DNA from: a phage
Assembly (NCBI GenBank): GCA_028524385.1
Contig: GCA_028524385.1_3661.2
Strand: one strand, 5' to 3'
DNA: 52,202 nt
Part shown: piece by piece, positions 4,001 through 41,019 of the stretch
Numbering within the stretch: position 1 is the stretch's first letter
How the letters are laid out: each line of letters begins with the position of its first letter
Position numbers and translations under genes: made by a program
The notes under the pieces: model-generated
Seen by the model: the letters and a program-made list of their open reading frames with translations, nothing else
Told to the model about the DNA's origin: nothing
Databases searched by the model: none

Positions 4001-6691
4001 CCGTATATAGTCTTCTCGTCTGTCCATGCAAATATGAACGGAGAGAAGTATCCGTTCGACGTTCCGGTAGCCAATAGATACAGACGTGTCGTGATGATCA
4101 TTAAGTGCGACCTGATAGGTAAGCAAGTTCCTGCTGAAAACGGAACATCAACACACCCGTTTGAAATTGCTCTGCACTACCAATTTGCAGATTCGCCTTT
4201 TGCAGGGGATAAGAGAATATCTGATACAGATGCACAGCGTTGTAAGAAGGTATTGTTAGGTGCTGGATGGTGGTGGTATGAGTTTGACTTGACAGACAAA
4301 CTCACAGACAACACAAAAACTCTTACAGGTATTCGTCTGGACCTTGGTGAAAACATGCACAAAAGTGTCTGCGATGGCACCTATGGTGATCCTACAGTAC
4401 ACTTGAAATATGTTTCTCTTGAGCATCCGGAGGAAACTGTTATTGGCCCCAAACTGAGACTGTTTGGCAGCTGGATTGCTAAAGACAGAGTAGGAATGGG
4501 TAAAAAGGTAAGAGGATTCCTGATGGATGCGGGGACAGAAGACATGCTGGTTAATGCAGTGTGGCCTACTCTAGAGGGAACCGACTACAACAATGCTGCA
4601 AGATCTGTCAACTGGTTTAACATCCACAGAGCCATGTGGACTACCAACTGCTATTTGTGGAGAGAGCTTAACGATAATGCCTTCGGCTTCAGCAATGGCA
4701 GAAGGATGGCTATCATTTGCTGGACAACACTGCAACGTTGCTATGACCACAACTATGAAATAGGTGGTAGAGCGTGGAAAGACACCAGGGATAGAATTGT
4801 GTACAACTTTGCAGACGACAACGGTGGTGGAGCGTATAACTTCGGCACAAGCAGACTTATCCACTTAAACGGATCCTCGGCCTACAAGAAAGAAGGTTAC
4901 TCTGGATCCATGATTGAGTGGGGTCTGGTAAAAGATGCTCGCGTATTGATGGGCCAACAACTTGCTGCTGCAATAGGTCCTAACGCAGTGCAATCTGTTA
5001 AACCAGCGTGGTTCGATATTCCATTGTGGTCATCCGGCACACCAGGGACTGCTGCAATCAATCCTACCACGGGAGATCTGGAAATCTCTTGGGAAGACTT
5101 GAAGCAGGTTGGGGGCTGGGATAAGACAGGGTATCAGGTGCAGTGGTGGAAATCTGACGGATCGTTAGCAGCTGATGAGTTTGTTAAGGACAATTTCTAC
5201 ACCATGTCTTCTGCAAAAGCACAGCAATTGTTTGGTCAGGCCACTCCGTCAACGATCACCATGTCTATGTGTTGTAAAGACAACAGGACTGGAGCTCTGG
5301 GACCAAGGGTTGCTAAAGTTTTCTCAGGTATCAAATGGAATCTACCTGTTCAAAGTGTTTCATGGAAGCAAATAGGTGATAACAGGCTGCTGGTTACTCC
5401 TGCTTGCCAGTTCAACGCAACTCTTAACGTTGTTCCGGTTGTTGCAGCAAACTCAGCCAAAGCTTCTGACTTCTCTGTGTCTAACACTGCCATGGCAGAT
5501 GTGAGAAAGATTGACACACTGAATGCAAGAATCACCTGTAAAAACACTTATGGCACCTTCCAGGTTATCAACAACTTCACAGATGCCGATTCTAAGGTGG
5601 TGAGAACCGCAAGCCAGACCTTGCGTTTAGGGACTTTGGCTTATGCAGCATTGATCACTGAGCAGTCATCTACCCTTCAGGGTGGTGGCGTAGGCAAGTC
5701 TATTACAACACCTGTTTGGAAGCCTAACGAGTGGGTTGTGTTTGATTTGACTGTTGACTTCTCCAGTGATAATAACTGGACGTGGGTAAGGGATTGCTTG
5801 TCTCAGTTAATGGGTGGTCCAAGCTCTATCAGGGATAGCCACGACTCTACCGATCCTGGCGTGTTCCAAGTGGGTAAAACTCACCCAGAGACCGGGGCTA
5901 CATTGCCTGACAGGAAGTATGCTTTGGTTTGCATCTCCCACGGCAAGGCCGATGTCACATTCTCAGGGACACATACTTATAACGGAACCTACAACTTCTC
6001 AAGAAAATACAGCCTCAAGGCTGGGAATATTGTAGATGAGGTTGGGGTGTTGTATAACCCTGGCAATGGCATAGGTATTGTTGGCGGTAAACTGCAGATG
6101 CAGGAACCCTCTATCACCCCTTCCAACGTAACAGGGATCAGAAAGACTTGGGAAAGTAGTAATACTGGCATAGCAACCGTTGATGCTAACACAGGACTGG
6201 TAACATTTAAAGCGCCCGGTAATGTCAACATAACGTTTGTAGTTACGGATGATGCAGGCCGCAAGACGTCTTCAACATCTTTCACTGTCAAACAGATGAC
6301 ACCACAGTGGAGAATGTGGATAGGCAGAGCAACAAACGGGGCATACCCAAATCCGGCAGGGACTTCAGGAATGAAGACTTTCTCTGCAAGCAGACCGATG
6401 GAGTATGGCAGCGGTCCTAAAGTAGGGCAAATGGTGTACTTCGGCGCATATATTCCTGAAATTATAGGGCTTCCGAGAAATCAGATCCAGTTGCTGTTCG
6501 GATCTGGAGTTGACGAGCTTGCTACTTTCGGGTATAGCGATAACATCGAGGCTGCAAGAAGTTCCGGATGGGTAGGGTTCAGACTGCAGTTGGCAGTAGA
6601 AGGCAGGGTCATGGGGTTTGGCTCCATAGGTGCCATGCTTCCTGGTGATCAGCAGTATGATCTTGAAGCTTATGCAACTTTCTCTCGTTAA
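1055..6691 (+). CDS. large tail fiber / receptor-binding protein (1878 aa) with C-terminal Ig-like domain
   Basis: Longest ORF; SD ggag 7 nt upstream; size and composition of phage fibers; Ig-like (BIG2-type) segment ...VTGIRKTWESSNTGIATVDANTGLVTFKAPGNVNITFVVTDDAG... near C-terminus. Confidence 0.65.
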   Translation: MLPIPLLKLGRHFLDKRGGIKELAVLSYPIDNSDGTSTAVSYVNSLAILFDDGQLNITGYNKFGECRTGDRNPINYPSETAWNVDHVWRADRAFVIRTFDNQFFYIGCTAGLIGSTAAGGNDVCVREWTPLPEQIVTGLHLDTHPERLVEVMGGINNTVWVIAAPEADGMLHLYGSGNNTYGSLHVDKNQHATPVKIGESSESPETGPWKNPRINCEVHDNSVIFGGPNGFWIAGYDFLRNNSKNTPVYPAEHVTLDQFKGIPVGETWKGFMCGPNGAIIATERMHKPDDQQLVNVFYGQDVWGDDTWRSLNITYTHEVIMARGYGTSGIFFNNGTKQYRGFSRNLCNDIGAQSANNNPRANFIHYRALATAKFVEQTEPVSWTESVYFQGIHREGFLGTFCVVNGKLWWSGIPRGSFSGSNNLFGGRLNSQGFTEIPENWYKNVPVDSWSIEDIFDVNGVSSVSNIYIGDTVKMKLKPQPEGATFIIDKIELVNAAGTVVTDANYQFSTNWNHGGANEIVVTQHNRNINRRGLYSVKITYHDKHGAGRTHTTRNLNWNIIVPAYPSDGKWHTVGRKKQFHVNDTVYFGLNGSQPAPESDTAYMVRLHRQDAGSTTYDVTQEIYDQRRSIYDNLVKTQALWEFNPNGKGGKMLQVNEQNGTSLTVHEHADPWPDPGKPHPGARTLKVVSHNAGYFGIRWEATVKYVDGTTNNIGITLGGTSEDSSLKIAYTPRGISIDNMDIVRNGYGDVNIKVTLGEHLGGERIIMYAFDHDPRTNGTYANQAWSYLINAPEPNTKEFYYGMKRDVCKKTGTHDWIAICVKDERTAWDEPVNRWFIGIPTRSDKYVTEYIVCMGGTNLNLCWNEDANKYSDYDYMRDISCNQWFNQTTGYPPRQARVNPAIFTDTQVFLTKQANEVQTFKNKYDPNKWFYNCYGAFFWGPGELPNGGSCFEAATYGSDYIMGQVKKYKMIPGPETLGNAVDPYIVFSSVHANMNGEKYPFDVPVANRYRRVVMIIKCDLIGKQVPAENGTSTHPFEIALHYQFADSPFAGDKRISDTDAQRCKKVLLGAGWWWYEFDLTDKLTDNTKTLTGIRLDLGENMHKSVCDGTYGDPTVHLKYVSLEHPEETVIGPKLRLFGSWIAKDRVGMGKKVRGFLMDAGTEDMLVNAVWPTLEGTDYNNAARSVNWFNIHRAMWTTNCYLWRELNDNAFGFSNGRRMAIICWTTLQRCYDHNYEIGGRAWKDTRDRIVYNFADDNGGGAYNFGTSRLIHLNGSSAYKKEGYSGSMIEWGLVKDARVLMGQQLAAAIGPNAVQSVKPAWFDIPLWSSGTPGTAAINPTTGDLEISWEDLKQVGGWDKTGYQVQWWKSDGSLAADEFVKDNFYTMSSAKAQQLFGQATPSTITMSMCCKDNRTGALGPRVAKVFSGIKWNLPVQSVSWKQIGDNRLLVTPACQFNATLNVVPVVAANSAKASDFSVSNTAMADVRKIDTLNARITCKNTYGTFQVINNFTDADSKVVRTASQTLRLGTLAYAALITEQSSTLQGGGVGKSITTPVWKPNEWVVFDLTVDFSSDNNWTWVRDCLSQLMGGPSSIRDSHDSTDPGVFQVGKTHPETGATLPDRKYALVCISHGKADVTFSGTHTYNGTYNFSRKYSLKAGNIVDEVGVLYNPGNGIGIVGGKLQMQEPSITPSNVTGIRKTWESSNTGIATVDANTGLVTFKAPGNVNITFVVTDDAGRKTSSTSFTVKQMTPQWRMWIGRATNGAYPNPAGTSGMKTFSASRPMEYGSGPKVGQMVYFGAYIPEIIGLPRNQIQLLFGSGVDELATFGYSDNIEAARSSGWVGFRLQLAVEGRVMGFGSIGAMLPGDQQYDLEAYATFSR

Positions 6692-17974: not shown

Positions 17975-18475
17975 GTGAAAATTAAGATCTTTGCTATTAT
18001 TTTGAGCGCACTTTTATCGCTGCCTGTTGTTGCAGCACCAAAACAAAAAGTATATCATACTTGCAAGCCCTCAGATACTAAGGAAAACATTCTGGCATGC
18101 AATATCTACAGGGAGGCTAGAGGGGATGGCACGATGGGTATGCTGGCATCAGGGTTTGCCACACTAAACAGGAAATCTCACCCCAAATACCCAGACACTA
18201 TAAGAAAGATTGTCTACCAACCTAACCAGTTTTCGTGGACAAACCACGGCAAAACTTTTAAGGTGACAGAAAAAGATTCATGGGATCACGCTAAAAGTCT
18301 TGCAAAGATGCTTCTAAAGGTCTATAATAACAACCATGTTGCATACATGGCTATGGACATAACAGGTGGAGCAACACACTACCATACAACCAAAGTACGA
18401 CCGAAATGGGCAAAAAAGATGCAGAGGACAGCTCAATTCGGGAGTCATATCTACTACAAGGAGCGCAATAAATGA
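17975..18475 (+). CDS. secreted cell-wall hydrolase, SleB/CwlJ-like
   Basis: N-terminal signal peptide MKIKIFAIILSALLSLPVVAAP; ...CNIYREARGDG...NQFSWTNHGK... matches SleB-type hydrolase pattern; GTG start with SD ggag. Confidence 0.5.
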   Translation: MKIKIFAIILSALLSLPVVAAPKQKVYHTCKPSDTKENILACNIYREARGDGTMGMLASGFATLNRKSHPKYPDTIRKIVYQPNQFSWTNHGKTFKVTEKDSWDHAKSLAKMLLKVYNNNHVAYMAMDITGGATHYHTTKVRPKWAKKMQRTAQFGSHIYYKERNK

Positions 18476-20454
18476 TTGTAAACAGTAATGAAACTAAAGC
18501 AGTACTAACCGGAAATATGGAGGTCACCAGGGGCTCAATTTCTCTGAACAAAGAGACTTTTGGGCTAATCATTAAAGGGATTTACGAAGATAAGGTGCTG
18601 GCAAGCTGCCGTGAACCAATCTTCAATGCTGTGGACTCCCATGTTGAGTCTGGACGGGGTGATGTACCGATCATCATTCACTCTCCTACAGACCTTGAAC
18701 CATACTTCTTTGTGCAGGACGTTGGATTGGGCATGTCGGAAGAGATGGTCCGCAACACTTTCATGAACCTCGGGGAGTCAACCAAGCGCAACAGCAACGC
18801 TCTGGTAGGTAATAAAGGTGTAGGTTCAAAGGCCCCGTTCAGCATGGTGGACACTTTCGATGTGATCAGTGTGCACAACGGTGTTGAAAGCACATATCTG
18901 TTGTTCTTGGATCAGGGTATCCCAAACGTTACCAAGATCCGCGAGCGAAAGACTGAAGAGCACAACGGGGTAAAAGTTCAGTTCCATGTTAAGAAAGAGC
19001 ATGTTCTGAAATATCGCACTGCTATTGCGTCATGCCTACGCTATGCAAAGTTTCCGTTTACCGTTACCGACCCTATGACCAGTAAGATGCTGGAAGGTGA
19101 CAAGGTTGAGGCGCAGTATCGCTACGAGAAAGATGGTTGGAAAATGACTATCCTGAAAGGTTATACCAGCTCTGATGAGAGCCGTGTGGTGATGGGACAC
19201 CAACCTTACCGCTCTAAGTTTCTGGAAACATTGACAGACTACCCTGCAATCTGTGTAGAGATCCCTATCGGGGATTGCAATATTAACCCTGGGCGCGAAT
19301 GGACCATAGAGGGGCACGACGATGGTGGATTCCAGGATCGCCTGGAGGCCTTTGTCAAAGAAGGTATACGTCTTCGTGGGGCAGAAGTTGTTGCGGAATT
19401 GGAGACAGCAAAAACATCCTCAGAAGCACGTGAGATGATGAAGAACAGTGGAGTGTTCGGACACATCTTCGGCAAAAACTTTATGTGGAACCGTTGGGAA
19501 GAAACAGGGCTTGGCGACTTAGGCGATTGTGAAATTTTCGCTGGCGGCTTAAATAAAGGCCGCATAGGCTATGCTCGTTACGGAAAGTCGGAGTTCTTAC
19601 GAGGTGTATACCTTGTATTTAACGACGGAGACGGCAAATATAACCGAAATAAGTGTAACTACTTAAGCGAGATCACCGGACGCAACGTTTTCTATTGCCG
19701 TAACACGGATCTGATGGAAGAGTTTAAAGAAGCGGCACACCACCCGTTCTTTGCAGATACGGTCAAATTGTTATCAGAGCTCCCTCGCCGTCCTGTAAAG
19801 AAAGGTGAAACAAAAACTCACTATGAGCCAGGGTATTGGGTTAAAAAACTTGAGAAAGATGGTTACTTCCGTCGTGAGCGTATTACTAAGGCAGAGTTCA
19901 AGAAGATTAAGCACTGCATTCCTTATGAGGGTGATATCCAACGTGGAAGTTGTTGGCTGGGACAGCTAAGTAACATCTACCAGCAAAATTATGACCGTGT
20001 GCGTGCGGCACTCCAGATTCCTGAAGGGGAAGATCTGTACCTGGTATCAGAATCTCGTCTGCTTTGGACTGATCCTGATTGCCAGTATGTTACAGAGAAA
20101 AATGTGGAACATTTGTTGAAAGAGGATGCCTGGAAATTCTTACTGACTCGCGCAGCAAATGAAACTTCATATGACAGCCTGTATAGACAATTAGGGAAAA
20201 TTATCCCCATGCAAGATTTTGGAAATTATCGGCCACATTTCCACAAGTGGGAAGGTAACACCGCGTGGAAGCACAGTGAGCTAAATCATCGTGCCAAAAT
20301 CTTAATCGCCAACCGAGTCAAGTGCGGGAAGGCCTATATTGCAAGATTGGAAAAGAAATATCCACTTTTGAAGCATGTGGGCTTGAAATATTGGGACACT
20401 CCTGCTATGATTGAATACCGTGAACTGATCGACGCAAAGAATAACACCAAATAA
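18472..20454 (+). CDS. GHKL-superfamily ATPase (Hsp90/MORC-like ATP-binding fold), function unknown
   Basis: N-box IFNAVDS, G1 box VQDVGLGMS, G2-like GNKGVGSKAPFSMVD in N-terminal 120 aa; 660 aa. Confidence 0.45.
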   Translation: MIVNSNETKAVLTGNMEVTRGSISLNKETFGLIIKGIYEDKVLASCREPIFNAVDSHVESGRGDVPIIIHSPTDLEPYFFVQDVGLGMSEEMVRNTFMNLGESTKRNSNALVGNKGVGSKAPFSMVDTFDVISVHNGVESTYLLFLDQGIPNVTKIRERKTEEHNGVKVQFHVKKEHVLKYRTAIASCLRYAKFPFTVTDPMTSKMLEGDKVEAQYRYEKDGWKMTILKGYTSSDESRVVMGHQPYRSKFLETLTDYPAICVEIPIGDCNINPGREWTIEGHDDGGFQDRLEAFVKEGIRLRGAEVVAELETAKTSSEAREMMKNSGVFGHIFGKNFMWNRWEETGLGDLGDCEIFAGGLNKGRIGYARYGKSEFLRGVYLVFNDGDGKYNRNKCNYLSEITGRNVFYCRNTDLMEEFKEAAHHPFFADTVKLLSELPRRPVKKGETKTHYEPGYWVKKLEKDGYFRRERITKAEFKKIKHCIPYEGDIQRGSCWLGQLSNIYQQNYDRVRAALQIPEGEDLYLVSESRLLWTDPDCQYVTEKNVEHLLKEDAWKFLLTRAANETSYDSLYRQLGKIIPMQDFGNYRPHFHKWEGNTAWKHSELNHRAKILIANRVKCGKAYIARLEKKYPLLKHVGLKYWDTPAMIEYRELIDAKNNTK

Positions 20455-27573: not shown

Positions 27574-30500
27574 ATGAGCATGTGGTCTTTCGATTTTGAG
27601 TCATCCGGTTTGCTGGAAGACCCAGATCTTTATTATCACTGCGGCCTGTTTAAAGAGCTGAATAAGAACCGTTTTATGCTGTTCCTTCCTCTAAATGACC
27701 GCACACACTACTCTGAAGAGGATATAGAGAAGGCTAAGAACTTTATTCTGGCAAAGAAAACTCTTTATAAAGATTTTGAAGTTCGCATAGCAGATTTTTC
27801 AGAGTTGGAAGGTTGGCTTACAGGAAATTCTGACTGGTCACCCACAGCTTTGAACTGCCACAACTGCTACAGCTACGACTTTATGCTGATGGAGAGATTG
27901 TCCGGTATTCATTTTGATATGTTCCGTGACCCTAAGTGTATGGGGACTATCAACGACCACCAGGTTAATCTGTTTGATACGTTGGCGATGAGCCGAATCT
28001 TGTGGCCTGATCGCCCTTTACCAAAAGGTTGTCCGGACTCTGTATTCAACCCGGTTACTAAGAAAATGCAGCCTGTTGGTCCTCACGGCCTTATGGCATG
28101 GGGCTACGCCCTTGGTAACCAGAAAGTTCAAATTGATGACTGGCGCGATCTTCCGTTGTGGAAGTATGTGGATCGTGTATTCGAGGACGTTATCATCCAG
28201 GAGCTGCTCTGGAAAGAGCTGGTAGCGGAATCAAAAGGTGTATTCTACGGCAAATCTGACATGCAGAACTTTATGTACGATCCAGCCAAAGAGAAGCCGA
28301 AAGGGTTCAAGAAGATCACCTGGAAGAACGCACTACGTCGAGGCATGCTGCAGCACTTCCTGATGGAGCTGCAGGCCCGTCAGGGTGTATACTTCGACAT
28401 AGATGGAGCTATTGCTTTACGTGACCGTTGCGATGCGTGGATGAAAGAAATCGCTGATCGTGTTGAACCACAACTACCTTTAAAAGAGCTGTCAATGTCT
28501 CAGCGGCCCAAGTTCCCTGAAAAGCCGTTTAACCAAGACGGGACAATCTCTAATAATGGTTGGAAATGGTTAAAAGATAAGCTTGGCTATCCTGTAGACA
28601 TGAGCGCTTTAGATTTCAAAGCCCCGCCTAAGCGAGCATTTACCTCTACAGGAGATGTCAGCAAGATGGGGATAAAATGGTGTGAAGAGATGGGCTGCAA
28701 AGACCCCGATAAGATGGCTGATTTCTTGAGAGGCTATATTAAGGGCACTTCCACACCTCACCCTTTGCCTAAAGAGCTGATGGATCAGGCAATAAGTGAT
28801 CTACAGCAGAAGCGAATGCCGGACTGCAAGATACCTATGAAAATCAGCAATCAGGACGACATTAAGCGGTATCTGATCAGTGCTGGCTGGCTACCGACAA
28901 TGTGGAGAACTAAGGATGTAACTAAAGATAGCAAGAAGAAAGCTCTACCTGATGCGGATGTTGATGCACGAGTATATGCATATATGGACGAGCTTTTAGA
29001 GTCAGAGTATTGTGACCTGATTATCAACTTCTGGAACAAAACTGATGCCAAGTTCCAGACAACTGTGCACAAGTTCCGAAGCTTTCCTAACTCTGAAAGG
29101 ATTAAAAAGGAAGTATTCGGGAAAATACGTAGAAAAGCCAGAGCACTTATTACTTCTCCGCAACTGAAAGATACGTTTGGACACCTGTGTCCGAATCTTG
29201 AAAAATTGAACGGAGAGATGGCTAAAGATATCGTCTTGTGGTTATCATTGCGAAACCGCAGATCAGTCCTTGATCCAATCAAGGAGGATAAGGTTGATAC
29301 TGGTCTTCTTAATCACCCACGTTTGAAGATTGACCATAAGCTTCCTGCTAAAAGCTCTGGATTAACAAACACTTCCAGACAGAAACACAGTATTTGTGCA
29401 AACATGCCTAAACCATCCCCTAAAGTGGTTATGGGTAAAGAGATGCGCAGTCTGTGGGGTGTTCCTCCTGGATACTTTCAGATCGGTATTGACGGGTCCA
29501 ACTTAGAGCAGCTTATCGGGGCTTGGGGTGCCTTTGAGTTCGACAACGGCCTGTATTACGATGTTGTAAGTAACGGCGATGCACATTGTTATTCAGGAGA
29601 TACACAAATTCTCACGGAGAAAGGGTGGGTGAGGTTTGAAGATCTTGATCCGGGAACACAAGTGTTCCAGTACGATCACAACACCTCGTCAATGAACCTT
29701 GTTACTCCATTAAATTACGTTAAGCGTAGTTATTATGGAGATATGTATCATTTCCACAACAGTAGTGTGGATTTTATGGTTACAGATCAACACAGGATGC
29801 TGACTGTGGATCACAGAAGCAATAAATTGTTTGAAGATTTGGCAAAAGACCTGAAAGCAGGTAAAGGGTCTAATTCAGGAAGAAGGTTTATCCATGCGGC
29901 AGAGTTTTATGGGAATACAGCCTTATCTCCTGCCCAGGTTAATTTGCTTATTGCTATTCACGATGATGGGCACTTGCATACAAATAAGGACGGCAGCATC
30001 GTGTGCAGGATTCAGGTCGGAAAGGGAAGAAAAGTTGCAACGCTTTTAGATACTTTTTCTGCTCTAAGCCTTAGTTATGTAGAGCAGAGCGGGAAAACCA
30101 CAAAAGGAGGCTTACTGGCGAGAAGGTTCCAATTCCACGTTCCGTCTTGGGTATTTGAGTTTTTGGACAGCAATAAGGATTTCACCTACAACCTGATGAA
30201 CCTTGATAAAGAATCTAAAAACCTGTTTATAGCTTCTTTATCTAACTGGGACGGGTGGGTATCTTCAGAAGGTGGAAAGGTTGCTTACTACTCCCAGGCC
30301 GAGTGTAGGAAGAAATCTGTAGAGGTGGTGTCTGCGCTGGCTACTCAGTGTGGTTTACGGAATAATACGGTGGCGATTCACAAAAAAGGTCGTGCCGTGC
30401 AGCACAGAATCACAATTGGTAGCAAACAGAGAGCAGGGTTGCTGACACTATCTAAAGAGTCTGTCGAGGTGAGCGGTTCTTTGGTTTATTGCGTTACCGT

Positions 30501-30966
30501 CCCTTCTGGAGCAATCATTGTGAGAAGGAATGGTAAAGTGGCAGTGTGCGGTAACTGTAATAACGCCAAAGCTTACTCTTCTGTAGCAGGCAAGGAGATT
30601 TCCCGTAACGATGGTAAGCCTATCACGTATGGGGTTATGTACGGGGCACAAAAAGATAAAGTTGCAGATATGCTGGACATCTCTCCAGAGTTGGGACAAA
30701 GGGTAATCGATGCACTCTGGGATGCCAACCCTGGTCTCAAGGGGCGCAAAGAGGATCTGGAGAAATTCTGGGAAGCAACTGGTAAGAAGTTTATCTACTC
30801 TTTTGATGGTCATGCTATCTGGACCAGATCTAAACACTCTTTACTTAATGCATACCAACAGAATGGTGGTGCATCGCTGTGTGACTTAGTTGGGATACTT
30901 ATGCACCACCAAATGGTGAAGCGTGGGTGGTACGATGAAGGTGTTCGTCGTATTATTTATTACCAT
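27574..30966 (+). CDS. family A DNA polymerase (T7 gp5-like), exon 1, containing an intein
   Basis: Exo I FDFE, HCG and HGLMAWGYALG as in T7 gp5 exonuclease domain; motif A IDGSNLEQL...NGDAH; motif B-like GKPITYGVMYG after intein; track ORF continues 2 codons into the intron to stop at 30972. Confidence 0.75.
29587..30555 (+). mobile_element. intein (323 aa) with LAGLIDADG-type homing endonuclease domain
   Basis: Inserted after extein ...SNGDAH; starts CYSGDTQILTEKGWVRFEDL; two LAGLIDADG-like motifs (LLIAIHDDGH, LFIASLSNWDGW); ends VYCVTV...VAVCGN followed by +1 Cys; flanks align to T7 gp5 NGDIH|TKNQ...RDNAKTFIYGFLYG. Confidence 0.65.
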
Positions 30967-31242
30967 AAATAACATTGTGGCTTCATAGAGTAATCTATGT
31001 CGAATAACCTCTTTAACTGCGGGAAGCCTAAACCTTATGGCAAGGTAATCCGCAACGAAGCGCTCAAAAGAGCGAACGCTCAGAGGCCATTCCGAAAGGA
31101 AGTAGACCAGCAAGTGCGGTCGAAATGGGAGGATTCCTGTGGTTGCTTATCATAGGAATATGAGATGGTCCGATCCTACGTGAAAACGTATGGCTATGCA
31201 CGTAATGGTGCGGGGTAGCTTAACGACCTACCTGAACTATTG
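30967..31242 (+). ncRNA. group I self-splicing intron (ORF-less) in DNA polymerase gene
   Basis: 276 nt between exon U30966 and terminal intron G31242; P/Q/R/S core elements aactgcgggaag, aatccgcaacg, cagaggcca, gagatggtcc; IGS gugg can pair with exon end ccau. Confidence 0.65.
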
Positions 31243-33783: not shown

Positions 33784-34075
33784 AAACATCACCCCAGCAG
33801 GGTTCTTAAAAGTATACCGTGAACTGCTGTATACTACAGAGGACAGTGTTCTAGAGTATCCAGAATATCTCTTGCTGTATAAGTATCTGCAGGAGGCTGG
33901 TGAAAATCTGCCAGTTAGTGCAGAAGGCGGTCCGAACTGGGTATACAGCGCATGGAGAAAGGTTGACATTCTCCCAGACCCAGGCAAAGATATGGTAGTT
34001 TGGCAGCTTATCAACAACATCGGGATTCCAATCTTTGATGAAGCTGTTAAAATCTATTTTGAACTTGACGATTAA
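33773..34075 (+). CDS. hypothetical protein
   Basis: Second in-frame ATG (33773) has SD gggagaag; overlaps upstream stop. Confidence 0.4.
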   Translation: MKTENITPAGFLKVYRELLYTTEDSVLEYPEYLLLYKYLQEAGENLPVSAEGGPNWVYSAWRKVDILPDPGKDMVVWQLINNIGIPIFDEAVKIYFELDD

Positions 34076-34092
34076 TATCAGGAGACCTTAAG

Positions 34093-34338
34093 ATGACTGA
34101 AGTAGTTGCTCGCGCAGGACAGAAAGTACGTTGTGTTGAAGTAGGTTTTGGTGGCAAAGGGTGTCAAAACTTGACTCAAGGTAAGGAATACGCTGTTATC
34201 TCTGGTGGTGGCGACGAAAGTATTGTGTTCGAGGGCCACATCCTGGATGCTGAAAACTTTGAAATCTTTGACGACGATGGGGATCCGATCACCTGCCTGC
34301 TGGACGGGAATTGGGGAACTTTCGAAGTGATTGGCTAA
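34093..34338 (+). CDS. small Gly-rich hypothetical protein
   Basis: 81-aa ORF with SD aggag. Confidence 0.45.
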   Translation: MTEVVARAGQKVRCVEVGFGGKGCQNLTQGKEYAVISGGGDESIVFEGHILDAENFEIFDDDGDPITCLLDGNWGTFEVIG

Positions 34339-34421
34339 CAAATACCTATTGTAATTTACAGAAGGGGATGCTAAAATAGTGTCTCCTTCTATGTTGTTCA
34401 AATAAAATCGGAGATTCCATA

Positions 34422-34787
34422 ATGGAACAAATGAACGATCAAGCGTCGGTTGCGATGAACGAGCAAGAACAACCTCAAGAATTTTTCTTAGGGTTAAGTA
34501 AAGATCAAGTGTCTCTTTTGCTAGTGCTTTCTTCTTTCATGGGAAGACTTCAGGAGCTCACACAACAACCGGAGGCTGAACAATTATTTCAGGCCCTGCG
34601 CGAAGAAGAAAAATATCGTCGTTTGGACTATGCCTTAGGTTGGGTAGCTCAACAACGAGATATGTTGATGGCCCTCTCTGGGACCACAAGTTTTGCAATG
34701 GGCCTGTTGGCTCAAGTTCAGGACAAATTAATTCAAGCAGGGTTTGCACACACGGCAAACACTAACGAAGAACAAGGAGACAAATAA
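34422..34787 (+). CDS. hypothetical protein
   Basis: 121-aa ORF, Q/E-rich. Confidence 0.4.
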   Translation: MEQMNDQASVAMNEQEQPQEFFLGLSKDQVSLLLVLSSFMGRLQELTQQPEAEQLFQALREEEKYRRLDYALGWVAQQRDMLMALSGTTSFAMGLLAQVQDKLIQAGFAHTANTNEEQGDK

Positions 34788-36013
34788 TGAGCGTTATTCA
34801 ACAATTCGCTAACCCGATGAATCCGCGTGAAACTGTTTTACTGGCTCACGGTATGATCAAGCGTGTTAGCATCAAACCTATTAAAGGGGCTGATCCTGCA
34901 ACAGGTATTAAAACCACCGTGTGGCAAGGTAAGAAAATTGAATCCAGCCACACCATCTCTTTACTGATTTCTGAACTGGATTCCTCTGATAACCTGCTTC
35001 AAGGTGGCGAAGAAGTCTGGATCAGCATGGGTGATAAGCTGCTTAAACCGGGTCATCAAGACTCTGTCTCTGTTAAGATTGATGACAAGTGGGAAACCGT
35101 AACACCAGGATGGATCGTAAATATCCCTTTGAAGGCAAACGAGCATAACGGTAAGACCTATTACAAAGGCTCACTGGCTAAGATGGTCAAGCTGGGTGCA
35201 GGAGAGGCTCCAGCAGCGACTCAGCAGCAAAAACAGCAACAAGGTGCACAATCACAAGGTCAGAAGCAGAAACCTCAGCAGAATGCCAATCAGGACGTTT
35301 TACGCATCTATGGCGATGTGACTCAGATTGTTGGCAACGTGGTTACTGTTAATGACCACAAGATCGGCGAAGGTGCTATGGTTGTCACGGATGAGCAGCT
35401 TAAAGACCTGGTGGTAGGTGGTCGTGTTGCAGCCATTGTTGACAAAGCCACCGGAAACATTATCAGTGGTTTCAAAGCCTATCCACCTAAGGCAGAGAAC
35501 GGCACCCAAGGTTCTGGTGGCAAGCGTAAATCCTCTTACGACCCTATCGGTGTGGAGACGGGGCATAGCATCAATGCGTTGCAGATCATCCTGGATCGCG
35601 GGTTTAAGGTAGACGACCCACTAGGCGTGGCTAAAACACTGCACGTAGTCACCATTGAGCTTAAGAAAGAGTATGCTCAAGCCACCAACCGAACTGAAGA
35701 TGAAGTAGGTGCCAGTGTCGGTAATGCGGTGTTGAACGCTTGTCGCCGTATTAACAAGAAAACGAAAGTTGATGATTTTGCAGCGGCAATTACTGCAGAA
35801 GCAAAAGATGTCTTGACTAATCTGGCTGAGCCGTTGTACGATTGGATCAAGAACGGTTCTGGGTCCACTGACCATCAAGAACCCCAAGCTGCCAAACAGG
35901 AAGCAGCTCCACAGCAAAACACTGTAGACGCTCCTCCTGTAAATGATGAGGAAGATGACCCAATGGATCAGAATCCAGCACAGTACTCCTTTGATGATGA
36001 CATCCCTTTTTAA
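34787..36013 (+). CDS. single-stranded-DNA-binding-like protein with SSB-type acidic C-terminal tip
   Basis: C-terminus ...SFDDDIPF matches the bacterial SSB C-terminal tip (DDDIPF); internal Q-rich low-complexity linker; placed in replication region. OB fold not verified. Confidence 0.45.
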   Translation: MSVIQQFANPMNPRETVLLAHGMIKRVSIKPIKGADPATGIKTTVWQGKKIESSHTISLLISELDSSDNLLQGGEEVWISMGDKLLKPGHQDSVSVKIDDKWETVTPGWIVNIPLKANEHNGKTYYKGSLAKMVKLGAGEAPAATQQQKQQQGAQSQGQKQKPQQNANQDVLRIYGDVTQIVGNVVTVNDHKIGEGAMVVTDEQLKDLVVGGRVAAIVDKATGNIISGFKAYPPKAENGTQGSGGKRKSSYDPIGVETGHSINALQIILDRGFKVDDPLGVAKTLHVVTIELKKEYAQATNRTEDEVGASVGNAVLNACRRINKKTKVDDFAAAITAEAKDVLTNLAEPLYDWIKNGSGSTDHQEPQAAKQEAAPQQNTVDAPPVNDEEDDPMDQNPAQYSFDDDIPF

Positions 36014-36028
36014 CAATTAGTTAACATA

Positions 36029-36056
36029 GCCCTGCCCGAAAGGGTGGGGCATTTTT
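36029..36056 (+). terminator. intrinsic terminator
   Basis: gccctgccc-gaaa-gggtggggc followed by attttt; hairpin identical to that at 24638. Confidence 0.65.
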
Positions 36057-36074
36057 GTATAAGGAGATCTGAAA

Positions 36075-36491
36075 ATGACATTAGAAGATATCATTGTTAA
36101 ACCTGAGAACTATGACCAATACAACCTGTCAACTCAATCTGTAGACCTTGGATGCGCCACGGTCAGTGCGTGGCTGGTTAACGGAAAAGAGCTAGATAAA
36201 TGCTTAGAAGCTCACATGTCTATTAACAAGTTTCTGGATGAAAATACTCACTGGCTTGAGGGTGCAGGAGTATATGCTTCATGGTTGGAGAGTATGGGAT
36301 TCGACTACCAATCTGAAGAAGGGTGGTGGAGCTATTTAGCTATCTGCCCAGAGACGCTGCAATGCTTCATGAAATATTCTGAAGATTTGGAGTACCGGGC
36401 GGTGGTTGATAGTGCTATTGCCCGTTATAGCCGTAAACCTTTTTCCCACGACATTAAAACTGTGGAAGAGTTTGTTGAAGTTTTCTGTTGA
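36075..36491 (+). CDS. hypothetical protein
   Basis: 138-aa ORF with SD aaggag. Confidence 0.45.
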   Translation: MTLEDIIVKPENYDQYNLSTQSVDLGCATVSAWLVNGKELDKCLEAHMSINKFLDENTHWLEGAGVYASWLESMGFDYQSEEGWWSYLAICPETLQCFMKYSEDLEYRAVVDSAIARYSRKPFSHDIKTVEEFVEVFC

Positions 36492-36587
36492 CACAGGCTG
36501 AAAGGTGTGCAATTATAACTTCATAGAACGGGAGGACGTGATGAACGAAGAAAACTGGGATGTATAACTAACAGGAGGCCACTGCCC

Positions 36588-36785
36588 ATGATTTATCGAA
36601 TCCGTGTAAGAGAAGATGCACCAGGCTGTTACTTTGACTGGCGTGGGTGGTGGTTTCTACACCCAATGGATGGACTCACAGATAGAATGCTGGATGCTGC
36701 CCTTTATACAGATACCGACATAGAATATAATCTCTATCTGAAGGACGGTATAGATAACGGCCTGTTTGAAGCAATTCCTGTGTAA
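36588..36785 (+). CDS. hypothetical protein
   Basis: 65-aa ORF with SD aggagg. Confidence 0.4.
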   Translation: MIYRIRVREDAPGCYFDWRGWWFLHPMDGLTDRMLDAALYTDTDIEYNLYLKDGIDNGLFEAIPV

Positions 36786-36853
36786 GAGACTGTGATAGCT
36801 ATGTTTTATGATCTTCCTGTAGCACCACCACCTGTTGAACCCGGAGAACTAAG

Positions 36854-37279
36854 ATGATCTATGAAATGCCAAAACTGATTCGTGACGATGCCCAAAACGC
36901 CCACACCTTTATCATGGGCAAGCGCATGGATATTATTTGTCATAAAGATTTCTGGGAAGGGAGTTACTTCACGGAATATTTTGGTAAACTGGATAATGGT
37001 CTGCTGATCCAGTTCTACACCGATGCGGAAAACAATATCTGCTGGGAGTTCGAAACTGAAGATATCCATAAACTTTTCACCTTCCTAGGTATTAAGGTTG
37101 AGGCCAAGTTCGAAGAAGGTGAGTGCGACGATTGTGGATTCTACGAGGTAACAGATTTCTATCTCCCAAGTGGTGAGAACCTTTACTATGAAAGCCACTT
37201 CGGCAACTCAAATATGCCACAAGGTTGGGATGAGTTTTTTGAAATTGTGGAAGAGGAGCTGGCATACCGTGATTATTGA
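36854..37279 (+). CDS. hypothetical protein
   Basis: 141-aa ORF with SD ggag. Confidence 0.4.
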   Translation: MIYEMPKLIRDDAQNAHTFIMGKRMDIICHKDFWEGSYFTEYFGKLDNGLLIQFYTDAENNICWEFETEDIHKLFTFLGIKVEAKFEEGECDDCGFYEVTDFYLPSGENLYYESHFGNSNMPQGWDEFFEIVEEELAYRDY

Positions 37280-37727
37280 TACTGTAGAGGGAGATTTAAT
37301 CTCCCTTTTTAAGAGCGGCGCTGGTCACCTGATCCACGGTTGTAACTGCTTCCACACAATGGGCAAGGGGATAGCAAAACAGATTGCCCGTGAGTTCCCT
37401 CAAGCATTGGCAGCTGACAAAGAGACCAGACATGGTTGCCTAAGTAAACTGGGTGCGTTCTCCCGATGGGAGCACTTATCTCCGAGAGGTATTGTCTACG
37501 GAATCAATCTGTATACTCAGTTCTACCCAGGACCTAATGCTGAATATTTCTCAATCCTGAAAGGCTTTGAGCTAGTCAATGAGGTATTCAGTGGATCGAC
37601 TTTACCATTCTACATCCCTAAGATCGGGTGCGGCATAGGCGGTTTGAAGTGGGAGCACGTAGAGGACGTTATTAACCTTGCCACTTTTGATATGGATATT
37701 ATCGTGGTGGAGTACAAAAAGTGTTGA
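37269..37727 (+). CDS. macrodomain protein (ADP-ribose binding / hydrolase fold)
   Basis: ...EGDLISLF...GHLIHGCNCFHTMGKGIAKQIA... aligns with macro motif GDIT...IVNAAN...GGGGVDGAI; C-terminal ...FYIPKIGCGIGGL... aligns with FPAISTGVYGYP; likely GTG start 37269 with SD gaggag (track ORF has long overlapping N-extension). Confidence 0.5.
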   Translation: MIIDTVEGDLISLFKSGAGHLIHGCNCFHTMGKGIAKQIAREFPQALAADKETRHGCLSKLGAFSRWEHLSPRGIVYGINLYTQFYPGPNAEYFSILKGFELVNEVFSGSTLPFYIPKIGCGIGGLKWEHVEDVINLATFDMDIIVVEYKKC

Positions 37728-37752
37728 CAGCTGGTTTTTGAGACGGTATAGT
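37724..37752 (+). promoter_or_regulatory. sigma70-type promoter
   Basis: TTGACA-17 nt-TATAGT overlapping stop of macrodomain gene. Confidence 0.5.
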
Positions 37753-37780
37753 CACCACAACGATTGAGAGAGGGAGCACT

Positions 37781-37951
37781 ATGGAGACTAAAATCTTAAT
37801 TCTGGCTGTGATAGATACAACCGAAGGGGCTGTGTTCGAATCTGCAGGAGGGTATTTCTACCTACCTTACGGAAAAAGAACTGCTGAACCAGGTAAAGAT
37901 TCAATCATCAAAGTGTTCCCGTGTGCTTTCTGGCTGGAGATTTTGGTATAA
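37781..37951 (+). CDS. small hypothetical protein (56 aa, not in ORF track)
   Basis: ATG with SD gagagaggga, downstream of promoter 37724. Confidence 0.3.
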   Translation: METKILILAVIDTTEGAVFESAGGYFYLPYGKRTAEPGKDSIIKVFPCAFWLEILV

Positions 37952-37977
37952 GATTGCAGAGGATTTGGGAGAGAATT

Positions 37978-38172
37978 ATGAGAAACAAGAGAGAGCTTTA
38001 CTCTGGCGAGTGGATCAACGATCAACAAGTCGGAGAGGTAACCTGCTTCCGGTGTTTTACTCGGTACAATCTTAAAACTGCACCAAAAAGTGTTCCAAAG
38101 ACTGATGGTTATTACATAAAAGAACCTCATTGCCCAAAATGTAAATGCCGATTGTGCTGGAGCAATCTATAA
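37978..38172 (+). CDS. small zinc-ribbon protein
   Basis: CFRCF...CPKCKC four-Cys pattern; ATG 37978 with SD gggagag (track ORF starts at upstream GTG 37921). Confidence 0.4.
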   Translation: MRNKRELYSGEWINDQQVGEVTCFRCFTRYNLKTAPKSVPKTDGYYIKEPHCPKCKCRLCWSNL

Positions 38173-38176
38173 GAGG

Positions 38177-38204
38177 TTGACATCTGAAAACTGCAGTGTA
38201 TAGT
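38177..38204 (+). promoter_or_regulatory. sigma70-type promoter
   Basis: TTGACA-16 nt-TATAGT. Confidence 0.45.
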
Positions 38205-38235
38205 ATACGCATAAACTAAAAGAGAGCGATGTATT

Positions 38236-38427
38236 ATGGTAATTTTTAACCGGGATGGTATCATAGTTAGACAGCACCCGTTCCTTGAATACTATCAAAT
38301 TGAGCAATGGTGCTACGGAGATTGCAGTCACTCCTATGGGCAAAGTTGGGGATATCGCACAGTTTTTGAATCAACAGACCTTGACAAAGTAAGACAGAAA
38401 GTTTTAGAACTTATTAACAACAAGTGA
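38236..38427 (+). CDS. hypothetical protein
   Basis: 63-aa ORF. Confidence 0.4.
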   Translation: MVIFNRDGIIVRQHPFLEYYQIEQWCYGDCSHSYGQSWGYRTVFESTDLDKVRQKVLELINNK

Positions 38428-38436
38428 GTATGATAT

Positions 38437-38769
38437 ATGGTAACATTAGAAAGACGTAAAGCTATCGCCGCCACACTGGCAGACATCTTTTGGGATTGCA
38501 ACTTAAAAGATACCAGAAATTGTGGCGCATCTGTAGATGTATTATTCCCACGGCCCACCATTGTTGCAATGGGAAACCTGTTAAACGTAGTGTACGGAGC
38601 ATGGGACAAAGAAGGTGGATTCTATATCTGGCAACCTGACTACGGAGCCTGGAAAGAGGTAAGGGGTACGGTTGACTTTGGGCCTACAAGTGCTAAGATG
38701 GATGGCTGGGAAATTTATGTTGGAAACGACATGAAGCTGAAAGGCGAGATTGTTTACTGGTTGCCTTAA
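38437..38769 (+). CDS. hypothetical protein
   Basis: 110-aa ORF. Confidence 0.4.
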   Translation: MVTLERRKAIAATLADIFWDCNLKDTRNCGASVDVLFPRPTIVAMGNLLNVVYGAWDKEGGFYIWQPDYGAWKEVRGTVDFGPTSAKMDGWEIYVGNDMKLKGEIVYWLP

Positions 38770-38828
38770 GAACGTGCAGGAGATAAAGTATAAACAAAGG
38801 GTGGACATTCGTAGACGGCGTTAAAAAC

Positions 38829-39035
38829 ATGCCTCTTGGAAAGTATATTGTAGCCATGGCAGATGAGAATGGCAAGGTGGATTTCGGAGTTTGCGAGGTT
38901 GTTCTTGCAGGATCTGGCGACTATGTGCACAAAACTGGGATAATTAACGGTCATTTCTACTTTGATTACAACCCTGTTGTGGCGTATATGGCTATGCCAG
39001 AGTTTAAGTTCCCAAAGGATGGTGCTGATGTTTAA
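38829..39035 (+). CDS. hypothetical protein
   Basis: 68-aa ORF; weak SD. Confidence 0.35.
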   Translation: MPLGKYIVAMADENGKVDFGVCEVVLAGSGDYVHKTGIINGHFYFDYNPVVAYMAMPEFKFPKDGADV

Positions 39036-39225
39036 GCTTAAATCCGCATGGAACATTGCTGTAGGTGACGAGATCCGTATTCCAGGTGGAGAAACTATTA
39101 TGAAGATATCTCGTATCGAGTATGAAGGTGACCGTGTATTCCACATCTTTGCAGAAGATGGTCGAGAAATTTATATACAGGCAGGCTCTCACATCTATAT
39201 TTGTAAGAAAGGGGACGACAAATGA
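39028..39225 (+). CDS. hypothetical protein
   Basis: ATG 39028 (SD aaggatgg) overlapping upstream stop; track ORF 38962..39225 has an N-extension overlapping the previous gene. Confidence 0.35.
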   Translation: MFKLKSAWNIAVGDEIRIPGGETIMKISRIEYEGDRVFHIFAEDGREIYIQAGSHIYICKKGDDK

Positions 39226-39554
39226 CAGAGATCATCGTTTCAACTGCAGGGTATGTATTCCTGACAATCATTGCGCTGGCTATTCTGGTGGCGGTGTATG
39301 GATTTGTTATCCTGCCTATTCTTGAGACATTTAGTTTGTGTCGGTGTTGGAGAAAAGCTTACGGACCACAACCGTGGAAAGACTGGTTCCATTTGGTGCG
39401 TATAGCGTTCTCTTATGCCTATGACCACTCTAGCAGTGCATGCGTAACCGGGTACCATGCCTACAACTGGAACTGGGAAGGGTTAGGGAGATGGACTGTT
39501 ACAAAAACTATACCCTTACGGTTGTACAAAGGAAAGAACACACTGGGAGCCTGA
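39222..39554 (+). CDS. predicted membrane protein
   Basis: 110 aa with hydrophobic N-terminal segment (YVFLTIIALAILVAVYGFVILPIL); SD aaagggga. Confidence 0.45.
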   Translation: MTEIIVSTAGYVFLTIIALAILVAVYGFVILPILETFSLCRCWRKAYGPQPWKDWFHLVRIAFSYAYDHSSSACVTGYHAYNWNWEGLGRWTVTKTIPLRLYKGKNTLGA

Positions 39555-39865
39555 TATTTTAAGTTATCAGGTTGCCAGAGATCAGGAGGATTTCTAAAAT
39601 GGATTTCCTCCTTTTGATATTTTACCTGCCATGATATTTTAAAATCCTTAGAAAATCAGAAAATGGATCGAAAACTAAAATGGATTTTTCAGAGTAGGCG
39701 CGACAAGCTGAATCACTCATCCTATCGTTTGCACCATATTCCAGACCACCATTACAGATTTCCCGCACATGCTTACATCTCGCTACTAGAACTTCCTCCA
39801 CTCACCCTTGACCTTTTATAGCAATAATCCAACCACTATCTTGAAGTTGCGGTGCAGCTTTCCAG

Positions 39866-39887
39866 GTACTCGATCTGTTTTTCGTTT
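39866..39887. repeat. 22-bp direct repeat, copy 1
   Basis: gtactcgatctgtttttcgttt repeated exactly at 39931..39952. Confidence 0.75.
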
Positions 39888-39930
39888 CAAATATTGAATT
39901 TTCTGAAAATTTTTCTCGATAAATTTCTCA

Positions 39931-39952
39931 GTACTCGATCTGTTTTTCGTTT
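39931..39952. repeat. 22-bp direct repeat, copy 2
   Basis: Exact copy of 39866..39887; surrounded by recurring aaaatggat and ttttctgRaaat words. Confidence 0.75.
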
Positions 39953-40188
39953 TCTGAATCGGATTTTCTGGAAATCGTTCCGGATCTCGACCTGAAATTT
40001 TTGGGGACGAAATCGATTTTTCGTTTTCAGAAATGGATTTTTAAAATTTGTATATGGAAATATTTTAGGAGGTATTATTTTATATAGAATTGTCACGGTA
40101 GGTAATTAGCATGCTAACTAAATTTATGAAATGCGAAAAGTTCTCATTTAGAACTTTGAATGATAATCATTCTCGTTTGCAGAATAAC

Positions 40189-40230
40189 GGGCAGGCCCGG
40201 TGATTGTCTCCCGGCCCCTGTTGCCCCGGC
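40189..40230. repeat. GC-rich structured element E1
   Basis: gggcaggcccggtgattgtctccc... ; core ccggtgRttgtctccc shared with E2 and E3. Confidence 0.5.
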
Positions 40231-40328
40231 TTGTTATTATAGTATCACGCAGGACAAAGAAGGCAAGGATTTTTTGCATAAATTTTTAAATGATAATGAT
40301 AACCGTTCTCATTTTATGCATCGCCCAT

Positions 40329-40365
40329 CCCCGGTGGTTGTCTCCCCCGTCACCGGTGCCTGCCG
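40329..40365. repeat. GC-rich structured element E2
   Basis: ccccggtggttgtctcccccgtcaccggtgcctgccg; near-identical to reverse complement of E3 (49271..49322). Confidence 0.55.
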
Positions 40366-40443
40366 TCCTTTCGATAGGTATATTGTGCCACCTGGCGGGG
40401 TCGCTGTCAACACCTTTTCGAAAAAAAAAAATTATAACCAGGT

Positions 40444-40492
40444 GCGCCCACCGCCAGGACCTGGCGGCGGGGCCAACCTGGCAGGTCCGCGC
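40444..40492. repeat. GC-rich element E4 with 17-bp palindrome
   Basis: ccgccagg-a-cctggcgg perfect palindrome; CCTGGCGG word recurs at about 40391, 40653 and 49282. Confidence 0.45.
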
Positions 40493-40707
40493 TATAAAGT
40501 GAACAGCTGAAGAAGAGGTACATAAATGAAAGGTAATATTATCCACCTGGGGAAATATAGTAATTAATGGCACGTGAGCTATCCTCCCTGGTTGAGAGGG
40601 CTAAAACTGAAGCGTTGGAACATAAAGAAGAATACGAAAAAATGATGGTTAACCTGGCAGGGGCGGCGGCTGGAGAATTCTACCCAAAAAATAATTTTAC
40701 ATAATGG

Positions 40708-40736
40708 TTGACAGCTCGGATAGTTCTTGTTATTCT
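40708..40736 (+). promoter_or_regulatory. sigma70-type promoter
   Basis: TTGACA-17 nt-TATTCT upstream of gene 40790. Confidence 0.45.
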
Positions 40737-40789
40737 TATTCTCGCAAGGTGAACAACACCACACTAATTAACAGAGAGGATAAGAAATC

Positions 40790-40987
40790 ATGAACGCATA
40801 CGGAATCAAATCACGTCGCAACGCTCGCCAGGTGGTCACCAATCAAGTGATTTGCCGGGTGGATGTAACCATCAACAACGGGCAAGGCCTTTATAAATTT
40901 CGTCGCGGTCATAGCTATACCCTGCAACAGCTTAACCGTTGCGCCCTGACAAAAGGTCAGATCAACCACTGGTTTAATAAAAAATAA
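40790..40987 (+). CDS. small basic hypothetical protein
   Basis: 65-aa ORF with SD agagagga. Confidence 0.45.
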   Translation: MNAYGIKSRRNARQVVTNQVICRVDVTINNGQGLYKFRRGHSYTLQQLNRCALTKGQINHWFNKK

Positions 40988-40990
40988 ATA

Positions 40991-41019
40991 TTGACATGTA
41001 GTCTGACACAAAATATACT
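40991..41019 (+). promoter_or_regulatory. sigma70-type promoter
   Basis: TTGACA-17 nt-TATACT. Confidence 0.55.

Follow-up and report, generated by a model that had tools for sequence, protein, structure and literature searches.

The gene at 37269–37727 on the forward strand of the window, which is the whole 52,202-nucleotide stretch of phage DNA analysed here (contig GCA_028524385.1_3661.2), probably encodes an AdfM-family ADP-ribosyl-glycohydrolase, and by analogy with its relatives it would remove DarT2-type ADP-ribose from thymidine in phage DNA. The earlier note on this DNA had proposed a macrodomain eraser acting against host ADP-ribosylating defence toxins, and membership of the T4 Tk.4/AdfM family supports this proposal and, by sequence comparison, appears to narrow the target to DarT2 adducts on DNA thymidine. 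The 152 amino acid ORF and both peptide strings quoted in that note are indeed present in the translation. A Gln, rather than the Lys familiar from DarG and human TARG1, occupies the catalytic position.

The macrodomain gene and its setting

The coding sequence begins with GTG at 37269, ends with a TGA stop at 37725–37727 and specifies a stand-alone macrodomain protein of the AdfM/T4 Tk.4 family. The longest mechanical ORF in this frame opens further upstream at GTG 37170, the extra stretch lying inside the gene at 36854–37279. GTG 37269 is taken as the start because homologues from many phages begin ‘MII(D/x)TV’ or ‘MII..V.GD’, because the 5' end of the Krischvirus RB49 orthologue, ATG ATT ATT GAT, is the counterpart of GTG ATT ATT GAT in the window, and because a 459-nt coding sequence identical in extent is annotated in the BP9 and FFH2 records. 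The longer frame from GTG 37170, and likewise the 540-nt coding sequence annotated in Pr121LW, was rejected since it overlaps the upstream gene and since homologues, including that of RB49 with its ATG, begin ‘MII’. A Shine-Dalgarno sequence of the gene's own, as the earlier note had it, can be read as GAGGAG at 37253–37258 (forward strand), 10 nt 5' of the GTG. The upstream gene (36854–37279, forward strand, 141 amino acids), taken from the ORF list, matches PHROG 8157, a family of unknown function, and has no Pfam match; it shares its final 11 nt with the beginning of the macrodomain gene, an arrangement that points to translational coupling.

The window belongs to a Vequintavirus, and this region is 97–98% identical to that of Vequintavirus (rV5-like) myoviruses of E. 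coli such as ime, Pr121LW and FFH2. Labels given to the macrodomain gene in these relatives range from ‘macro domain protein’ through ‘phosphatase’ and ‘O-acetyl-ADP-ribose deacetylase’ to ‘hypothetical protein’, and because a macro domain is already annotated in Vequintavirus records the macrodomain call itself is not new. The macrodomain gene is one of a long run of small genes on the same strand, some 6 kb downstream from the gene for DNA polymerase. None of 10 neighbouring genes has a significant Pfam domain, their PHROG matches are all to families of unknown function, and a PDB sequence search with the neighbouring 408 amino acid protein gave no match.

A promoter scan found 25 sigma-70-like promoters in the region against 12.5 in shuffled controls. 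The promoter that the earlier note placed at the 3' end of the gene is there, as a near-consensus sigma-70-type sequence (TTGACA-17-TATAGT, 11/12 matches; 37724–37752, forward strand) that overlaps the macrodomain stop codon, and it would serve the downstream small genes and not the macrodomain gene. A candidate promoter for the latter, TTGACA-17-AATTAT with an extended TG, came from the promoter and terminator scan at 36488–36516 (forward strand), with a terminator-like hairpin upstream of it at 36029–36050. From this layout we infer a candidate three-gene unit, comprising 36588–36785, 36854–37279 and 37269–37727, that may be driven from 36488–36516.

Fold, class and active site

Profile searching and structure prediction with fold comparison, both proposed in the earlier note as ways of checking the macrodomain call, bear it out. 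The Pfam Macro family PF01661 matches at 28.3 bits (gathering cut-off 22), PHROG 335 matches at 2e-59, and the family profile finds PDB macrodomains at E-values from 4.5e-17 to 1e-13. An AlphaFold2 model built on an alignment of 68 homologues (mean pLDDT 96.8, pTM 0.91) has the macro fold, an alpha/beta/alpha sandwich of three layers, with two glycine-rich ADP-ribose-binding loops, and these loops are conserved. The top Foldseek matches of the model are all macrodomains, namely TARG1, Poa1p, DarG, BT1257 and SCO6735, of which TARG1, the eukaryotic eraser of Glu/Asp-linked protein ADP-ribose, is the best (E 4.6e-10, TM 0.78/0.85). With the family profile the same five proteins score near-equally, at 54–66 bits, and the best curated models are those of DarG, NCBIfam NF048014 and the PADLOC DarG model (7.6e-14). 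The window protein is thus a member of the ALC1/TARG1/DarG-like class and forms a subclass of its own within it.

A MacroD-type deacetylase was considered and is ruled out by the structural ranking and by the absence of the catalytic Asp of the G-G-G-V-D loop, the position of this Asp being taken by A36, which is invariant in the family. The alignment made in the earlier note to the pattern GDIT...NAAN...GGGVDGAI was therefore right in part: the loops do correspond in topology, whereas the assignment to the MacroD type was wrong, with A36 in place of the Asp.

The first ADP-ribose-binding loop, recognised from conservation and from alignments with DarG, SCO6735 and Poa1p, spans codons 23–36 (H-G-C-N-C-F-H-T-M-G-K-G-I-A; 37335–37376, forward strand). 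Within it N26 (37344–37346) aligns with DarG N22 in the HMMER alignment, G24, C27 and G34 are near-invariant in the family, and H23 aligns with SCO6735 H24 and with H23 of Poa1p, the active-site residues of the latter being H23, S30 and F152. Codons 80–84 read N-L-Y-T-Q (37506–37520, forward strand) and end in Q84 (37518–37520); HMMER alignments place this residue opposite the catalytic Lys of DarG (K80, the Lys of F-P-T-K) and of TARG1 (K84), and also opposite SCO6735 Q85 and the Gln of N-M-I-G-Q in BT1257. The second, glycine-rich and diphosphate-binding loop at codons 117–126 (P-K-I-G-C-G-I-G-G-L; 37617–37646, forward strand) aligns with the PRIGCGL of TARG1, SCO6735 and BT1257, and its P117, G120, G122 and G125 are invariant or nearly so. 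The TARG1 D125 position is G124 in the window protein.

Among 235 family members N26 is kept in 233/233, Q84 in 231/231 aligned and H23 in 230/233, and the family signature H-G-[CA]-N-C ... N-x-Y-T-Q ... P-x-I-G-x-G-x-[GA]-G is present in full in the window protein. The residues mutagenised in SCO6735, namely H24, N27, K34 and Q85, correspond to H23, N26, K33 and Q84 here; of these, K33 varies within the family, where Ala is the commonest residue at that position. Lacking from the phage family is the ‘mobile loop’ insertion of 5–6 residues found directly after the Gln in SCO6735 and BT1257.

The roles of DarG K80 (numbered as in the T. aquaticus and M. tuberculosis proteins), TARG1 K84 and SCO6735 Q85 have been described (PMC9411070; PMC13309987). 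SCO6735 clears thymidine-linked ADP-ribose from DNA faster than do DarG or TARG1, and its presence rescues E. coli from DarT; the Q85A and Q85E variants are inactive, and a water-mediated mechanism independent of lysine was proposed for it (PMC9411070). Its mobile loop, which exceeds that of DarG and TARG1 by five residues, was linked to its high activity on DNA, it acts also on protein ADP-ribose, less efficiently than on DNA, and even the dead Q85A variant still inhibits DarT through an interaction (PMC9411070). Since the Gln is invariant in the phage family and essential in SCO6735, the missing Lys is no sign of inactivity, and by analogy the Q84 active site suggests an SCO6735-like chemistry in a scaffold of DarG size.

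The AdfM family, its cellular relatives and known erasers

Over its full length (residues 1–150, E 2e-40) the window protein shares 39% identity with T4 Tk.4, and the motifs H-G-C-N-C-F-H-T-M-G and N-L-Y-T-Q-F-x-P-G-P-N are identical in the two, the Gln included. Tk.4 was the single T4 gene that a DarTG2 host made conditionally essential in a transposon screen, and a clean tk.4 knockout leaves T4 sensitive to DarTG2, for which the gene was named adfM (preprint, bioRxiv 10.1101/2025.11.20.689424). This T4 evidence is genetic and in preprint form. The transposon method was also applied to the Vequintavirus Bas54, with no DarTG2 challenge reported (bioRxiv 10.1101/2025.11.20.689424), and a literature search for functional tests of a Vequintavirus orthologue found none.

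At the syntenic regB-vs.1-tk.4-tk position RB49 carries a homologue that shares 67.6% identity with the window protein and 44% with T4 Tk.4, and so stands nearer to the window protein. These identities suggest that the macrodomain gene has been exchanged between Straboviridae and Vequintavirinae. No homologue of the upstream gene 36854–37279 adjoins the RB49 orthologue. The family is widespread: of 50,697 phage records examined by tblastn, 2,783 contain a homologue, tk.4 of the T-even phages among them, and 1,424 clusters (50% identity) match at an E-value of 1e-30 or better. Close Vequintavirus orthologues are 99.3–99.8% identical in the macrodomain gene as against about 97% over the region, and comparison of the gene with that of RB49 gives pN 0.24 and pS 0.84, with synonymous sites near saturation, for a pN/pS of 0.28.

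Like the window protein, T4 Tk.4 is a stand-alone phage macrodomain of about 150 amino acids. They differ in that Tk.4 belongs to the Straboviridae and the window to the Vequintavirinae, with window neighbours that are absent from the RB49 locus, and in that the window gene has a GTG start, is probably coupled in translation to the PHROG 8157 gene before it and has a role that is predicted. More distant is the chimallivirus AdfM, gp104 of PhiKZ, which in vitro frees DNA of the ADP-ribose added by DarT2 and which gives protection from DarTG2 (Cell Rep 2026, PMC13309987). It too is a stand-alone phage macrodomain of the DarG-like class and has the loop 1 Asn in common with the window protein, but the identity is about 21% in a partial alignment (E 2e-5), and its active site of N23 and K78 keeps the DarG-type Lys (F-P-T-K) where the window protein has Gln. 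PhiKZ gp104 moreover is imported into a phage nucleus; Vequintaviruses are not known to have one.

The DarG2 antitoxin itself (PDB 5M3I, 5M31, 5M3E) differs in several respects. The NF048014 model gives the window protein 47.5 bits, far short of its cut-off of 250, and matches at profile positions 3–141 of 338 only, the C-terminal DarT-binding domain is absent, Q84 stands where DarG has its catalytic K80, and no darT adjoins the window gene, the neighbours of which are phage genes in a lytic phage genome. SCO6735 of Streptomyces coelicolor and BT1257 of Bacteroides (PDB 5E3B, 2FG1) resemble the window protein in having Gln where the catalytic Lys would be; at 22–23% identity to it they differ by their cellular origin and by the mobile loop. 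Human TARG1/OARD1 (PDB 4J5R, 4J5S) has class and loop architecture in common with the window protein, but uses a Lys84/Asp125 dyad where the latter has Q84 and G124. AdfN (T4 30.3) is likewise a phage-borne orphan eraser, antitoxin-like and able to reverse DNA ADP-ribosylation by DarT, but its fold is unrelated and it is specific for DarT1 guanine adducts (PMC11825919).

Bacterial and archaeal relatives were sought by scanning representative genomes with a 12-sequence alignment as query. The 77 loci returned are nearly all stand-alone ORFs of about 150 amino acids with N-x-x-[TG]-Q, a Lys occurring in only one. NADAR genes (Pfam PF08719, E-values down to 3e-58) lie within 2.2 kb in eight of these loci, and four of the eight, three in Ruegeria genomes and one in an uncultured bacterium, are NADAR-Macro operons with NADAR immediately ahead of the macrodomain ORF and overlapping it. 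Fusions of Macro and NADAR account for 3 of 14 long family members. Other than NADAR, the conserved neighbours are only lineage-specific housekeeping genes, for example that of Ile-tRNA synthetase, and clustering of neighbour ORFs by similarity, which used no DarT profile and could let a divergent DarT escape, revealed no toxin partner near the bacterial relatives. NADAR strips ADP-ribose from guanine in DNA (PMC11825919; PMC11543638). The NADAR linkage is an independent pointer to a family substrate range of base-linked ADP-ribose in nucleic acids. In the window a profile HMM of the bacterial NADAR neighbours reached a best E-value of only 0.27 for an AdfN-like gene, and no NADAR is annotated in the FFH2 genome.

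Proposed function and alternatives

The macrodomain gene would be expressed early in infection from host-type promoters. Its protein would then bind the ADP-ribose placed on thymidine of single-stranded phage DNA by DarT2, the toxin of the DarTG2 toxin-antitoxin defence, and hydrolyse the bond between ribose and base, so that ADP-ribose is released, replicable DNA is restored and the phage escapes the abortive infection imposed by DarTG2. Catalysis is predicted to be lysine-independent and SCO6735-like, with Q84 together with N26 and H23 positioning substrate and water, a route that would differ from the Lys-dependent catalysis of DarG and TARG1. Fold, class, family membership and conserved active-site residues were obtained directly, and the DNA substrate and DarTG2 counter-defence by homology. 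Points that count against an anti-DarTG2 role are that identity to T4 AdfM is only 39%, that the T4 evidence is genetic and from a preprint, that the canonical Lys and the mobile loop are both absent, and that the phage genus also has a Sir2-family protein, which could make O-acetyl-ADP-ribose or ADP-ribosylated targets. As for specificity, SCO6735 and TARG1 use protein-linked ADP-ribose also, which counts against DNA being strictly the substrate, and DNA is perhaps not the sole or main one.

Three alternatives were weighed, each of them less well supported than the anti-DarT2 reading. It seems unlikely, though the least improbable of the three, that the protein erases protein- or RNA-linked ADP-ribose left by other bacterial ADP-ribosyltransferase toxins or by a phage writer. 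The nearest structural class does include TARG1, the top Foldseek match and active on Glu/Asp of proteins, and SCO6735 removes protein ADP-ribose as well, though DNA more efficiently (PMC9411070); against this, the TARG1 catalytic dyad is missing (K84 replaced by Q84, D125 by G124), the sole known phenotype of the family concerns DarTG2, which is a DNA-modifying system, the NADAR linkage indicates nucleic-acid base adducts, and FFH2 is without an annotated ADP-ribosyltransferase. That last observation bears also on a further suggestion of the earlier note, the regulation of phage-driven ADP-ribosylation, which gained no backing: in this close relative the sole candidate writer is a Sir2-family gene at 68010–68771, far from the macrodomain gene. 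An enzyme acting on metabolites, either an O-acetyl-ADP-ribose deacetylase or an ADP-ribose-1''-phosphate phosphatase that might clear what the phage Sir2 or RNA repair produces, is implied by the GenBank labels ‘O-acetyl-ADP-ribose deacetylase’ and ‘phosphatase’ (PHROG 335), and we hold it to be quite improbable.

The remaining alternative does away with catalysis and would have the protein bind ADP-ribose or act as a stoichiometric inhibitor, blocking DarT or sequestering ADP-ribose-derived signals. The absence of the canonical catalytic Lys would fit with this, as would the inhibition of DarT by the catalytically dead SCO6735 Q85A (PMC9411070) and the way in which the phage factors AdfA and AdfB act through DarT binding. 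However, SCO6735 needs a Gln at the equivalent position for catalysis, and an invariant Q84 with N26 and H23 fits an active site and not a surface co-evolving with diverse toxins, and so this alternative is very improbable.

Returning to DarT2-type adducts as the probable target, the window gene is then an expected counter-defence gene of a known family and no new kind of system, and the principle of how DarTG and its antagonists work is left unchanged by it. Rather doubtful, though worth stating, is a broader proposal in which Tk.4-type AdfM proteins form a mechanistically distinct Gln-using subclass of erasers that derives from stand-alone cellular macrodomains pairing or fusing with NADAR as a general module for the repair of base-linked ADP-ribose, and was not captured from DarG2, and that, like SCO6735, maybe acts on several kinds of adduct (DNA, protein and possibly RNA). 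If this were true, around 5% of sequenced phages would be equipped against a broad spectrum of ADP-ribosyltransferase defences and not against DarTG2 alone.

Vequintaviruses infect a broad range of E. coli hosts and are candidates for use in biocontrol and therapy. An anti-DarTG2 role would give a specific and testable function to a gene that their records label ‘hypothetical’, ‘phosphatase’ or ‘O-acetyl-ADP-ribose deacetylase’, and the family-wide use of Gln for Lys links the phage enzymes in mechanism with SCO6735, which matters for how such erasers are studied and inhibited.

Promoters and gene starts around the macrodomain gene

The small-gene block of the window (34000-41000) carries 25 sigma-70-like sites against 12.5 expected, and this is consistent with many independent early promoters. 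Two of them, on the + strand at 37724-37752 and 38177-38204, share the same hexamers (TTGACA and TATAGT, with 11 of 12 matches in each) and lie 450 nt apart.

Some GenBank records carry a longer form of the macrodomain gene (37269-37727 in the window), as in the Vequintavirus relative Pr121LW, where it is annotated as a 540-nt CDS (locus L001, 6688-7227). About 90 nt of this form lie within the upstream gene, and its start is probably mis-called. Sixteen records named 'Campylobacter phage' (MG0656xx, host Campylobacter jejuni, including search hits H3-H9, H13 and H14) share about 97% identity with this region of an E. coli Vequintavirus; their host or name assignment looks doubtful.

Putative replication-linked features

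The DNA polymerase ORF (27574-30972, + strand, 1132 aa) contains an insertion of some 323 aa (residues 672-994, window 29587-30555, + strand) which the polymerase of the relative FFH2 lacks; there, HNH endonuclease genes lie around the polymerase gene in its place. The insertion begins with C-Y-S-G-D-T-Q-I-L and ends with V-C-G-N followed by Cys, a weak Hint_2 match covers residues 672-706, and the insertion looks like an intein.

A 408-aa protein (34787-36013, + strand), matched to PHROG 4477 (function unknown) and with no match in Pfam or in a PDB sequence search, has a central linker rich in Gln and Pro and ends in SFDDDIPF, the motif at the C-terminal tip of SSB in E. coli. That tip recruits host replication and repair proteins. 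The protein may act as the phage's own SSB, or it may mimic the SSB tip. A strong terminator-like hairpin (36029-36050) lies 3' of its gene.

Possible exchange and partners of the adfM family

In Krischvirus RB49 the Tk.4 orthologue occupies the syntenic tk.4 position (locus L082, 4001-4453). It shares 67.6% identity with the Vequintavirus protein as opposed to only 44% with T4 Tk.4, which suggests that adfM has been laterally exchanged between unrelated phage families.

Vequintaviruses also carry a Sir2-family gene, located in FFH2 outside the window (68010-68771, or 18010-18771 of locus L084) and adjoining genes for a putative RNA ligase, a nucleotide pyrophosphohydrolase and a phosphoesterase; its product is possibly an NAD-consuming or ADP-ribose-generating phage enzyme.

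Among bacterial relatives, at loci L021, L030, L031 (Ruegeria) and L061 (uncultured bacterium), a NADAR gene lies directly upstream of the Gln-type macrodomain gene, with the pair overlapping by 4-38 nt around locus positions 2470-5460, and Macro-NADAR fusions occur among the family proteins (P0149, P0107 and P0198). NADAR and the Gln-type macrodomain may constitute a two-enzyme module erasing both thymine- and guanine-linked ADP-ribose from DNA.
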